From a virus, in the IMG/VR virus record IMGVR_UViG_3300036398_002324: a stretch of 64,000 bases of DNA; one strand, written 5' to 3'. Shown here in pieces: positions 7,220 to 52,955 of the stretch. Below the pieces are notes generated by a model. It did not search any database. It was not told the DNA's origin and saw nothing but the letters and a program-made list of their open reading frames with translations. Within the stretch, counting starts at the first letter, position 1. Each line of letters opens with the position of its first letter. The translations under genes and the position numbers were made by a program.

Positions 7220-8263
7220 ATGGCACTCTATACTGATACAAAATACATAAGACTCATTTCTTCCCGCTTGCGTAACTTCAAGCAGAAGAATGATAATCTC
7301 TGGAATTTCTCATGTCCTTATTGTGGCGATTCTAAAACAAACTTACTCAAAGCCCGAGGCTATGTTTTTGCCAAGGGTAATGATTTATTCTATCGTTGTC
7401 ACAACTGCGGAGTAGGAACAAATGTCGCCAATTTACTCAAACATATCGACCCAACAATACATGATGAGTATGTATTCGAGAAATACAAATCAGGAGCAAC
7501 CTCCAACACGCATCACAGAACGAGTAGTGTACCACCAAGAATCATCACCAACCCACCCAAATTTGGTCACATCAAAAAGCGCAACATATTTGAACATGGG
7601 ACCCGGCTCAACGATTTACAGAGTGGACATTTTTGTCTAACTTATGTAGAAAATCGACTGATTCCTGAAGAACATTATGATAAGCTGTTGTTTACTTCAA
7701 ACTACAAAGCATTTTGTGATGCGCTAATTCCCAATCACGATAAAAATTTAGTTGAAGATGCACGATTGGTTATTCCATACTTCAATTATCAAAATGAATT
7801 AATTGCAGTATCTGGTCGTGCATTAGAAACAAGTGACCGCACACTACGTTATGTTACATTGCGTACAAATGAATCGACAAACAAATTAATCTTTGGCATA
7901 GATAGAGTTGATTTAACTAAACGTGTTTATCTTGTTGAGGGTCCACTTGATTCTTTGTTTCTGAATAATTGTGTAGCAAGTGGTGATGCAAATCTTGCTT
8001 TAACGGTGAAAAATATTCAAGCAAAAAATATTACGCTTGTTTTTGACAATGAACCACGCAATAAAGAAGTATGTAAGTTGATTGAAAATGCAATCAAATC
8101 GAATCATAATGTCGTAATTTGGCCTGATGAGATAGAAGGCAAAGACATCAATGAGATGATATTGAATGGTTTTTCGGCCAGCGAAATTCAAAGGATTATA
8201 GATAGTAATACATTTTATGGTTTGGAAGCAATAGCTAAATTTACATTTTGGAAGAAATTATGA
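7220..8263 (+). CDS. gp61: DNA primase (T4 gp61-like)
   Basis: Zn finger CPYCGDS...CHNC; TOPRIM motifs VEGPLDSLF, FDNEPRN, KDIN. Confidence 0.93.
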   Translation: MALYTDTKYIRLISSRLRNFKQKNDNLWNFSCPYCGDSKTNLLKARGYVFAKGNDLFYRCHNCGVGTNVANLLKHIDPTIHDEYVFEKYKSGATSNTHHRTSSVPPRIITNPPKFGHIKKRNIFEHGTRLNDLQSGHFCLTYVENRLIPEEHYDKLLFTSNYKAFCDALIPNHDKNLVEDARLVIPYFNYQNELIAVSGRALETSDRTLRYVTLRTNESTNKLIFGIDRVDLTKRVYLVEGPLDSLFLNNCVASGDANLALTVKNIQAKNITLVFDNEPRNKEVCKLIENAIKSNHNVVIWPDEIEGKDINEMILNGFSASEIQRIIDSNTFYGLEAIAKFTFWKKL

Positions 8264-15149: not shown

Positions 15150-16556
15150 ATGAAACTATTTAAAAAACTTTCTATTGTAGTTGCACTAGCCGCAGTAATT
15201 CCAGCATATGCTGATGAGTATAAGGACACATTGAATATTCTCAGAGAGAAAAATATTATTACTCAACAAGAGTATAATACTAAACTTAAAGCATATGAAG
15301 AGAAAGAAGAAAACAAAAAATTTGCAGAGCAAAGAATTGATAAAGATGTTAGTGATTCAGTCAAATACAGACAAGCAAGAGCAAATGACGGTTCAGTTAT
15401 GGAAAACGGAATCGGATTAAAATCAAAAGATGGTAACAATACCATTCAGCTTACAGGTCGAGTAAACATGGACTATCGTTACTATACACCAGACTATGGT
15501 ACAGGGCAGACCACAGATTCATATCAAAACTTAGCTGAAATTCGTCGTGCAAGATTTGGTGTGCGTGGTCAATTTCAAAAAGACTTCAAGTATGAAATAA
15601 TTGGTAACTTTGGTAATGATGTTGGTGCATCATCAACATCAACATTGATGGATGTGGCTTGGGTAAATTACGCAGCAAATCCTGAAATGCAGTTTCAGTT
15701 CGGTCTATTTAAAATGCCTTTCAGTCTTGAGCAGTTGACTAGTTCAAACAACATTGATTTTATGGAACGTAGTTTGATTGGTCAAGTTGAGGGTGAATTT
15801 ATTCCATCAAAAGAAACTGGATTCATGGTGCATGGTGTACCTAAAACTGGTTTGACTTATGCTGTTGCGTTGAGCCGTGGTCGTGCAAATAAAGATGCAA
15901 CAAATGATGGTTTTGATTACATTGGTCGTGTTACCACAAACATTGCTGAACTAACTGGCAGTAAAGAGTACACTGCTCACTTGGGTGCAGCATATAGTAT
16001 GGGTGATATTAAGGGTGGAGTAATTCCTGCAAGTGGTAGAACTGAGAGTAGATCTCAAAGTGCTTTCTTTACTGGCTCCGCATTGAGTGGTGACACTGTT
16101 AGAACACGCCAAGGTCTTGAAGCAGCATTTGCATACAAAAGTTTGAAACTACAGGGTGAGCAATTTAATTTCAAATATGACCCCACTACAGGTAACAATG
16201 TAGAAATTAAAGGTTACTATGTTCAAGCGATGTATAATTTAACAGGTGAATCTTATAATTATAAAGATGGTGTTTTTAGTGCAGTTAAACCAAACAACCC
16301 AACTGACAAGGGTGGTAAAGGTGCTTGGCAAGTTGGTGTACGTATGAGTGAGTTTGATGCTAGTGACATTACTGTTGCTACTGGTAAAACCAATCGTGCT
16401 ACTGCTATGACTTATGGACTAACTTGGTTTGCTACTGACAACCTACGTTTTATGTTAAACTATGTTGATACTAAATTTGATGCTTTAGTTGGTTCTTCGG
16501 GTAGTCGTGTAACTGGTGACAAAGCAATCATGTTTAGAAGTCAATTGAATTTCTAA
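15150..16556 (+). CDS. Phosphate-selective porin OprO/OprP family
   Basis: Signal peptide; RRARFG, PFSLEQLTSSNNIDFMERS; C-terminal Phe; follows pstS. Confidence 0.85.
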   Translation: MKLFKKLSIVVALAAVIPAYADEYKDTLNILREKNIITQQEYNTKLKAYEEKEENKKFAEQRIDKDVSDSVKYRQARANDGSVMENGIGLKSKDGNNTIQLTGRVNMDYRYYTPDYGTGQTTDSYQNLAEIRRARFGVRGQFQKDFKYEIIGNFGNDVGASSTSTLMDVAWVNYAANPEMQFQFGLFKMPFSLEQLTSSNNIDFMERSLIGQVEGEFIPSKETGFMVHGVPKTGLTYAVALSRGRANKDATNDGFDYIGRVTTNIAELTGSKEYTAHLGAAYSMGDIKGGVIPASGRTESRSQSAFFTGSALSGDTVRTRQGLEAAFAYKSLKLQGEQFNFKYDPTTGNNVEIKGYYVQAMYNLTGESYNYKDGVFSAVKPNNPTDKGGKGAWQVGVRMSEFDASDITVATGKTNRATAMTYGLTWFATDNLRFMLNYVDTKFDALVGSSGSRVTGDKAIMFRSQLNF

Positions 16557-35814: not shown

Positions 35815-35902
35815 GTTGTAAAACAACAACACAAAAATGCTTGACAGTTTGGCGAAATATCTTTATAATCGTTTCTGTTGAGTGATTGAAGTTCTTTAAA
35901 AA
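35815..35902 (+). promoter_or_regulatory. tRNA-operon sigma70 promoter with GTTG-N8-CAAC and a boxA-like element
   Basis: TTGACA(35841)-17-TATAAT; GTTCTTTAAAAA at 35891-35902. Confidence 0.7.
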
Positions 35903-36102: not shown

Positions 36103-36154
36103 AACTTTTAAAAAGGAGAGTCCACATGGACAGTGACAAGAGTAGTAAGATGAA

Positions 36155-36230
36155 GGGGCTATAGTCAAACGGTTAAGACAGCGGACTTTTAATCCGTCAG
36201 GTCAGGGTTCGAATCCCTGTGGCCCCACCA
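36155..36230 (+). tRNA. tRNA-Lys(TTT)
   Basis: Cloverleaf, CCA. Confidence 0.92.
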
Positions 36231-36316
36231 TATAAAAACACATTCAAACACATGATGACGCCCGGGGTTATGGAATGTTTTACGACACTCCAAGAATGTG
36301 TTTCTATATGGTTTGT

Positions 36317-36477: not shown

Positions 36478-36486
36478 AAGTTTTAT

Positions 36487-36561
36487 TGCTCGGTAGCACA
36501 GCGGTAGTGCAGTTGACTGTTAATCAATTTGTCGTTGGTTCGATCCCAACCCGAGCAGCCA
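36487..36561 (+). tRNA. tRNA-Asn(GTT)
   Basis: Cloverleaf, CCA. Confidence 0.92.
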
Positions 36562-36562
36562 A

Positions 36563-36756
36563 GTTCCGGTTTCTACTTACCTGAAAGTAGCGGGTGTCAC
36601 ACGTTAGTTAGACCGGTTGGCTAGGCTACCGTTAGCGCAATGCAGAGCAGAGCACCTAGATATCCGGACACAACCGGTAGCACGATACGCTGAAACAAAT
36701 GTGGACAGGGTAAAAACTCAGCATAGGGGCGATGACTGGAAATCACGTAGCCTAAG
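36563..36756 (+). ncRNA. Candidate pseudoknotted ncRNA within the tRNA array
   Basis: Several complementary segments (ACCGGTTG/CAACCGGT, TAGGCTAC/GTAGCCTA, TTCCGGTT/GACTGGAA); no ORF. Confidence 0.55.
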
Positions 36757-36758
36757 CA

Positions 36759-36888
36759 ATATTAGTTTTGCAGTTTGTAAGCCATGGGCTTGATCATGCC
36801 TGAGTAACTATGTCTATAAACGGTAAAGAAAGTCCTGCAGGCTACTCCGTTGAAACATAGCAAATAGTGCAGACTGCAAAACTAATAT
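36759..36888 (+). ncRNA. Candidate ncRNA closed by a 21-bp stem
   Basis: ATATTAGTTTTGCAGTTTGTA pairs with TGCAGACTGCAAAACTAATAT (two G.U pairs). Confidence 0.5.
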
Positions 36889-36973
36889 GGGTTGGAAGCA
36901 TCAATGGTGATGCAGTGGACTGTAAATCCGCCGTCTTCGGGCACGACTGGTTCGATCCCAGTACAACCCACCA
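36889..36973 (+). tRNA. tRNA-Tyr(GTA)
   Basis: Cloverleaf with variable arm, CCA. Confidence 0.9.
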
Positions 36974-36979
36974 TATTTT

Positions 36980-37054
36980 CGGTCTTTAGTAAAATGGATA
37001 TTACGGATGGCTACGGACCATCAAGTGGGAGTTCGATTCTCTCAGGACCGGCCA
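36980..37054 (+). tRNA. tRNA-Arg(ACG)
   Basis: Cloverleaf, CCA. Confidence 0.88.
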
Positions 37055-52445: not shown

Positions 52446-52609
52446 TTATGGAAATTAGTGAAAAAGAATACGATGAAAAATTGGATGAATATCTGAGAGA
52501 ACAAGGACCAAATCTAGGTGAAACATTTTTTGGCGCATGGGGTTGGTATGCAACAAAACGAAATGAGTTTAATGCGATATTGAAAGAGGAAGGAATTGTT
52601 GTAATCCCT

Positions 52610-52890
52610 TCAAAGTGAAGGCATTCTGGACGAGGGTTCGATTCCCTCCATCTCCACCAGAAACATTCTTGTCCATGGAGTTGGGAACGGACAGATAAAC
52701 CGTGAGAGTGTTTCTCATGGGGATGACCTGGTTTCGACAGGGTGAGATAGCAGAGAAGGCAACACGAAAGGCGACGGACGTAATCCGAGCAAATAATATA
52801 ACCGCAAATGACGAGTTATACGCTCTAGCAGCCTAAATTGCTAGATGAGGTTTCGCCGACTGTCCTTATTATCCAATCAGTCGGCATCAA
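52610..52890 (+). ncRNA. ssrA: Circularly permuted (two-piece) tmRNA, tag ANDELYALAA
   Basis: T-arm/CCA piece ends 52659 upstream of the GGGGATG 5' piece at 52719 (G3.U70); tag at 52804-52836; outer ends approximate. Confidence 0.88.
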
Positions 52891-52955
52891 TTATGGGTTT
52901 GGTGGCATCACCCGAACAAGAGTTCAAAAAACCACCACTTACACGGAGTTATATT

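Follow-up and report, generated by a model that had tools for sequence, protein, structure and literature searches.

Lakes and other environments commonly harbour phages that have large tRNA sets, and the companions of these tRNAs are poorly known. The tRNA cluster of phage T4 harbours species 1 and 2 (rnaC and rnaD), small stable non-coding RNAs that are co-transcribed and processed with the tRNAs and the function of which is unknown. The theta (HDV-like) ribozymes of gut phages are small HDV-type folds, far shorter than the 196-nt RNA described here. Being pseudoknotted and located directly after phage tRNA genes, they have been proposed to act in the removal of tRNA 3' trailers (PMC10879173). 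GOLLD (RF02032), first seen in lake metagenomes, and ROOL are both encoded by phages or prophages, often by tRNA islands, and exhibit many pseudoknots and no known protein partner or function (PMC12286853).

The RNA of the present study occupies positions 36563-36758 (plus strand, 196 nt) of a 64,000-nt stretch of DNA, hereafter the window, which is part of the genome of a large uncultured freshwater phage. It resembles GOLLD and ROOL in its phage origin, its association with tRNA islands, its many pseudoknots and the lack of a known protein partner or function, and its position inside a phage tRNA cluster is that of the T4 species 1 and 2. GOLLD and ROOL are, however, ~600-800 nt long, and the two T4 species, with ~120-140 nt, are shorter than the window RNA, the 3' end of which reads AAGCA, a CCA-like end being absent. 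Concerning the theta ribozymes, these sit directly after a tRNA, whereas many copies of the family described here are not adjacent to one. The RNA is a third structured RNA tied to phage tRNA islands beside GOLLD and ROOL, and a much smaller one.

Within the window, ARAGORN recognizes 24 tRNA genes, all on the plus strand, to which Rfam adds a tRNA-Tyr; other genes include those for a ribonucleotide reductase, a phosphate porin and lysozyme/amidase tail proteins. The RNA is placed between tRNA-Asn and tRNA-Tyr, on the strand of the tRNAs, and begins 1 nt past the CCA end of tRNA-Asn (36487-36561, plus strand; ARAGORN and Rfam tRNA model), which agrees with the position assigned to it in an earlier note on this DNA. 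A sigma-70 consensus promoter upstream (35841-35869, plus strand; TTGACA, 17 nt, TATAAT) matches the consensus at 12 of 12 positions and would, judging from its sequence, drive the genes from tRNA-Glu through tRNA-Thr, the RNA included; no terminator-like site was found between this promoter and position 36758. The same note described the stretch as non-coding and GC-richer, and both observations stand: the GC content is 0.51 vs ~0.40 in the surroundings, and the element is non-coding since its 58 distinct homologous sequences (185-215 nt) exhibit no bias towards lengths that are multiples of three. For this reason, and because the changes among the homologs are compensatory, the open reading frame 36617-36793 was rejected as coding. 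The edges of the RNA are sharp, the fraction of the major base in the homolog alignment rising from ~0.4 to 1.0 at the third base and dropping within ~5 nt past the last helix. No close relative of the window phage is present among 50,697 GenBank phage records; a comparison of the neighbouring 852-aa protein with phages gave no match, nor did a protein-based search for related loci.

As for the homologs, an 18-mer from positions 36630-36647 matches in 10 viral contigs, a second motif and then a two-block pattern brought the viral loci up to 21, and the two-block pattern found 78 loci in metagenomes, ~14 of them being chance matches; an exact 22-mer scan of viral contigs gave no match. The covariance model built from 57 sequences (R1) recovers 85 copies, designated here as type A, with scores of 124-204 bits, all from uncultured phage contigs and comprising 58 distinct sequences. 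The window sequence, itself one of the 57 training rows, is matched over model positions 1-190 of 190 (cmsearch, 156.3 bits, E 1e-45) and aligns end to end with the other 56; the model, together with the conservation profile, defines the extent of the gene. Both the covariance model and the core pattern introduced below find a single copy in the 64-kb window, and a repeat or MITE was rejected on the same ground. Flanks of the homologs are unrelated to each other, consisting of differing tRNAs, hairpin spacers or small ORFs. A diverged paralog with the same order of elements, type B, occurs in the same phages as type A and was seen as weak second matches (17-35 bits) at seven kinds of loci. The window contains a type A copy only, while the phage of locus L017 possesses both types; the window RNA is a type A copy from a phage lineage different from that of L017, it has a short P8 helix, and two substitutions are private to it, i.e. 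U for A at RNA position 10 (36572) and A for C at position 152 (36714).

The core pattern alone is found in at least 120 viral contigs and at least 122 distinct sequences, nearly all with the same 3' domain; the core motif marks a superfamily of at least 120 viral contigs. Among the core matches listed, 140 of 151 have a tRNA within ~670 nt, and all of the 1518 tRNAs within 3 kb of these matches lie on the same strand, with 0 on the opposite one. In prokaryotes (one genome per species, 185,579 species) the core pattern gave 37 matches, 36 of which lack the 3' domain and look like chance. The remaining one (L264, 3631-3649), located on a 523-kb contig of an uncultured Chloroflexia MAG, is the only credible member from a prokaryote genome and may be real, its core preceding a stem that resembles P9/P10 and has the loop GUGGUG. 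When compared by blastn with the 50,697 GenBank phage records, which include relatives of T4, the window stretch matches by its flanking tRNAs only, without any similarity to T4-type RNAs, and the member from L140, representing the commonest loop type, gave no match to GenBank phages. A phage with a neighbouring oxygenase 76% identical to that of the window joins tRNA-Asn directly to tRNA-Gln and tRNA-Tyr, the RNA being absent from as much of this array as was fetched (up to 6.7 kb), and the RNA thus appears to be dispensable or replaceable. There is no conserved neighbouring protein family, and the small ORFs next to the RNA match no known family. In one superfamily subtype, the RNA is preceded, at a distance of a few bases, by the end (...QAEGLL) of a conserved ~190-aa protein that matches neither Pfam nor PHROG; this protein is found in L140 (96-668) and 24 other loci (25 in total) and is absent from the window.

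The comparison with Rfam 15 revealed, for positions 36480-37000 and even at E up to 10, no family but tRNA and chance matches, in line with the unrecognised family of the earlier note. The same search of 14 type A/B loci (E up to 5) gave nothing except tRNAs and chance matches, and that of 18 superfamily loci (gathering score) only tRNAs and one separate GOLLD gene; full-text searches of the literature gave no description of the RNA family, and the family appears, from these comparisons, to be uncatalogued, not being present in Rfam 15. GOLLD and ROOL were rejected as identities, with no match to the window (36480-37000, E up to 10) or to 32 homologous loci. It should be noted that the GOLLD RNA of locus L127 (8707-9166, 225 bits) is a gene of its own, located in the same tRNA array as a superfamily member (core 7383-7401). 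The manA RNA motif, which is included in Rfam 15, was rejected by the same lack of a match in the window region, the 14 type A/B loci and the 18 superfamily loci, and YrlA has no Rfam match either. A group I intron in a split tRNA was rejected, exon halves and an Rfam match being absent, as were decayed tRNA genes, the tRNA model having no match inside 36562-36888. RNase P RNA was rejected despite look-alike motifs (GGUAAA..AGCAUAGGGG and GAAAGUCC), since Rfam gave no match (E up to 10) and the motifs are in the wrong order; GAAAGTCC at position 36829, considered as a further RNase P motif, is part of the adjacent hairpin and lacks conservation in L018. With tmRNA the RNA has in common that it is phage-encoded and contains a row of H-type pseudoknots (cf. 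the ring PK2-PK4 of tmRNA), but it has neither a tRNA-like domain nor a tag reading frame. The window does encode a tmRNA elsewhere, at 52546-52927, the only position found by ARAGORN and the Rfam tmRNA models, which agree on it; it is of the two-piece (permuted) kind, with the tag ANDELYALAA.

It should be pointed out that positions 36562-36758, judged by minimum free energy, would fold no more stably than shuffled sequence (z = 0.05). Taken alone, this result, the lack of an Rfam match and the absence from the oxygenase-related phage would suggest a lineage-specific spacer, and the case for an RNA gene rests on the homologs, thermodynamics alone giving no signal. In the model-based alignment of the 58 sequences, 82.2% of the cells of the 54 pairs are paired vs 71.2% after shuffling, and the covariation score is 0.270 vs 0.105 in shuffles, none of the 500 shuffles reaching 0.270; with the partners slid by 1-3 columns the score falls to 0.046-0.071. 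As many as 34 of the 54 pairs change on both sides. The alignment figures understate the signal because P4, P6 and P8 are displaced by 1-3 columns between subtypes, and therefore the energies of cognate and non-cognate duplexes were compared, too. The cognate ones are clearly better for P1, P4, P5, P6, P8 and P9, e.g. -6.0 vs -2.2 kcal/mol for P1, -8.2 vs -4.9 for P4, -7.0 vs -3.6 for P8 and -9.1 vs -6.0 for P9. The main proposal of the earlier note—that the stretch forms a separate, pseudoknotted non-coding RNA, belongs to a family not yet recognised and is positioned like the T4 cluster species—is thus sustained by 58 distinct homologs, the match at E 1e-45, the lack of an Rfam family and the strong covariation.

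The fold supported by these homologs begins with a 5' hairpin, continues through three successive H-type pseudoknots and ends in a two-helix 3' stem, the molecule probably being closed by the pairing of its 5' tail with the loop of that stem. The 5' tail TTCCGG (36564-36569) is complementary to CTGGAA (36736-36741) in the P10 loop, which would yield the 6 bp of PK4, and this complementarity is kept in all type A copies. Between subtypes the two partners change together, as AUCCC/GGGAU, CCUC/GAGG and CCCC/GGGG in type B and CCCUGU/ACAGGG and AACU/AGUU in other subtypes, which we read as support for PK4; in automated superfamily-wide tests of the tail/loop pairing, G-rich loops match C-rich stems too. 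The complementarity TTCCGGTT/GACTGGAA, taken previously for a closing helix, is real and conserved, but it is not a nested closing stem, since it connects the 5' tail with the hairpin loop of the 3' domain. The P1 hairpin CTACTT/AAGTAG (36573-36578 with 36585-36590, loop ACCTGA), already recognised in the same note, is paired in 100% of the 58 homologs; 4 of its 6 pairs show changes of both partners, and six Watson-Crick variants occur.

The row of pseudoknots starts with PK1 (36591-36613), in which S1, CG/CG (36591-36592 with 36602-36603), crosses S2, GTC/GAC (36596-36598 with 36611-36613). S2 is 88.5% paired and all of its 3 pairs covary, while S1 varies as CGU/ACG, CGG/CCG, GG/CC and CGUU/AGCG, with only 2 bp in the window copy. 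PK2 (36614-36659) is formed by P3, CGGT/ACCG (36614-36617 with 36628-36631), and by P4, in which the loop CTAGG (36621-36625) pairs with CCTAG (36655-36659); a small variable hairpin, P5 (36637-36638 with 36647-36648), is located inside it. In P4, 89.6% of the cells are paired, 4 of the 6 pairs covary, and more than nine compensatory variants occur, such as GCUAUG/CAUAGC, GCCAAU/AUUGGC and GCUCGG/CCGAGC. PK3 (36664-36703) combines P6, CCGG/CCGG (36664-36667 with 36674-36677), with P8, in which the loop CACA (36669-36672) pairs with TGTG (36700-36703), and encloses the P7 hairpin AGC/GCT (36679-36681 with 36689-36691). P6 covaries as CCGG/CCGG, GCGG/CCGC, GCUG/CAGC, CGU/ACG and GCAG/CUGC. P8 has 6-8 bp and strong covariation in other subtypes (GGACACU/AGUGUUC, AUCCCU/AGGGAU, GAAUACA/UGUAUUC), and in the subtype of the window, with only 3-4 bp, it is inferred by homology. 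In the window copy PK2 is clear, and PK1 and PK3 are present with one helix of each reduced to 2-4 bp. The 3' domain (36721-36757) comprises P9, GCATAGG/CCTAAGC (36721-36727 with 36751-36757; 89.4% paired, 5 of 7 pairs covarying), an internal loop GG/TAG, P10, CGATGA/TCACG with one bulged A (36730-36735 with 36743-36747; 91.3% paired, 2 of the 3 counted pairs covarying), and the loop 36736-36742.

The four-helix fold proposed earlier is, the hairpin apart, mostly wrong: two of its helices, among them the long-range pseudoknot that was its headline, are unsupported because their strands sit in other covarying helices. The first, ACCGGTTG (36612) with CAACCGGT (36671), has 63.8% of its cells paired and is present only in the subtype of the window; in relatives the hairpin CCGG...CCGG changes to GCGG...CCGC or GCUG...CAGC with 36612-36619 unchanged, and 36614-36617 pairs with 36628-36631 instead. 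The second, the long-range pairing of TAGGCTAC (36622) with GTAGCCTA (36747), reaches 69.8% of paired cells with one double change only, and its cognate and non-cognate duplexes do not differ (-8.2 vs -7.7 kcal/mol); of its two strands, the 5' one is part of P4 and the 3' one of P9, and both of these helices covary.

Directly 5' of the terminal stem there is an invariant single-stranded core of 19 nt, GGACAGGGTAAAAACTCAG (36703-36721, plus strand), which matches the consensus GGACRGRGUAACWRCYCAG at all positions but one (A for C), is found a single time in the window and has no partner detectable by covariation. It is a likely functional site, and together with the conserved junctions GUUAGCG and CAGACAA it likely forms a contact or active site. 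Further pairings are possible between CCUG of the L1 loop and CAGG of the core, and between GUUA(C) at 36569-36573 and UAAC of the core, the bases of both candidates having been fixed by the search patterns or never being variable. In the window copy, GUUU (36569-36572) could pair, in a shifted register, with AAAC (36714-36717), where other copies have GUUA and UAAC, and the complementarity kept in both cases hints at an additional tertiary pairing. An RNA of ~190 nt with four to five pseudoknots, the core of which is invariant in at least 120 viral contigs and which is nearly absent from cellular genomes, bears the signature of strong selection for a precise three-dimensional shape. Being small, it lends itself to probing, crystallography, cryo-EM and self-cleavage assays.

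With regard to its biogenesis and role, we consider it probable that this compact ~196-nt gene of phage tRNA arrays gives rise to an RNA that is co-transcribed with the tRNAs, released by tRNA-processing nucleases and stable, and that may act in trans. The RNA would be transcribed as part of a tRNA precursor and be set free by trimming of the upstream tRNA 3' end and by RNase P at the next tRNA. The freed molecule would then persist as a nuclease-resistant stable RNA, resistance to exonucleases being expected from the tail/loop closure and the stacked pseudoknots. Its action in trans would be exerted via the invariant core and the junction residues on a partner—protein, RNA or small molecule—that could be linked to tRNA or translation during infection. 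In ~20 loci the RNA begins 0-4 nt past the CCA of a tRNA, and in several genomes it ends 6-12 nt ahead of the next tRNA; for many copies the distance to the upstream tRNA is 35-466 nt, and in ~15 type A loci a tRNA is absent from the fetched flank. Because of these ~15 loci, release by tRNA processing cannot be universal, and they count against a purely tRNA-linked role. A partner or an activity, if found, could reveal in what way phages control tRNA pools of their own. A bolder idea, which we regard as unlikely, sees in the family a novel class of functional RNA machines confined to phage tRNA islands. Its members could be ribozymes of a new kind, with tRNA precursors as the substrate of processing or modification, or they could bind tRNA, or its CCA end, through the invariant core and the G-rich loop of P10 and thereby reprogram the tRNA supply during infection.

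Less probable still is a decoy or tRNA mimic that would protect phage translation, e.g. by sequestering a host nuclease directed against tRNAs or some other defence protein that binds tRNA. The strict link to phage tRNA arrays, the restriction to phages and the gain and loss by phages in the manner of accessory counter-defence genes would all fit it, and the 3' domain, a stack of ~12 bp with a loop of 7-9 nt, has the size of an acceptor/T-arm minihelix; the 5' strand of that minihelix is, however, internal and not a 5' end, the cloverleaf, T-loop and CCA end are absent, the tRNA covariance model gives no match, and no candidate target is known.

Next in order, and doubtful on several grounds, comes a cis-acting processing ribozyme which would cleave at its own 5' boundary and so make the 3' end of the upstream tRNA, for which the theta (HDV-like) ribozymes beside phage tRNAs offer a precedent (PMC10879173). 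The ~20 loci directly following a CCA would suit such a ribozyme, the first paired nucleotides lie at the extreme 5' end and are pseudoknotted with a distal loop, and the invariance of the core and junctions is that of a catalytic RNA, but the copies distant from an upstream tRNA, or without any in the fetched flank, count against it. The RNA is, moreover, three times bigger than the known small self-cleavers and matches no Rfam ribozyme family at E up to 10. Its strand order, as read from the sequence, is also unlike that of HDV: the topology P1-P2-P3-P1'-P4-P2' was rejected, the partner of the 5' strand lying within the P10 hairpin loop and not between P3 and P4, and the Rfam HDV models gave no match.

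By analogy with GOLLD and ROOL, the RNA might be architectural, assembling by itself into protein-free homo-oligomeric particles, which we hold to be quite improbable. It does share their niche, being found in phages at tRNA islands, rich in pseudoknots and not accompanied by a conserved partner protein (PMC12286853), GOLLD occurs in the array of a family member in L127, and no protein family is conserved next to the RNA; against this, it is four times smaller than ROOL or GOLLD, has no sequence or covariance-model similarity to them, and displays no sequence feature pointing to intermolecular contacts. A functionless spacer, or the remnant of a mobile element or of decayed tRNAs, is hardly tenable: the RNA is missing from a related phage and the arrays are rich in variable hairpin spacers, but the covariation contradicts it, with 58 distinct sequences, compensatory changes in 34 pairs and an invariant core, and the boundaries are sharp and both a tRNA-like signal and terminal inverted repeats are absent.

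Several other elements of the window deserve mention. Positions 15150-16556 encode a full-length match to the phosphate-selective porin O/P family (Pfam PF07396, E 1e-53), an auxiliary gene unusual for a phage. The tRNA-Tyr that follows the RNA (36889-36970; GTA anticodon, long variable arm, one acceptor mismatch) is missed by ARAGORN and scores 34.2 bits with the Rfam tRNA model. The gap between the RNA and this tRNA is filled by a 130-nt element (36759-36888) that abuts tRNA-Tyr and has a 21-bp near-perfect closing stem; nearly identical stems (AUAUUAR.UUUGCAGU) lie 3' of the RNA in L018, L067, L079 and L153, and the interior, seen only in L018, is unrelated there; the element behaves like a separate cassette. 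Between tRNA-Glu and tRNA-Lys, a hand-read mini-ORF, MDSDKSSKMKGL (36126-36164), is preceded by an AAGGAG-like site and enters the 5' end of tRNA-Lys; its start, ATGGAYAGTGACAAGAG, is also found 3' of the RNA in L020 and L026. A 19-bp inverted repeat with 95% complementarity (36227-36312) begins inside the CCA end of tRNA-Lys and stops just before tRNA-Gln, and similar CCA-anchored hairpin spacers are present in L003 (2355-2444) and before the RNA in L020, L026 and L029.
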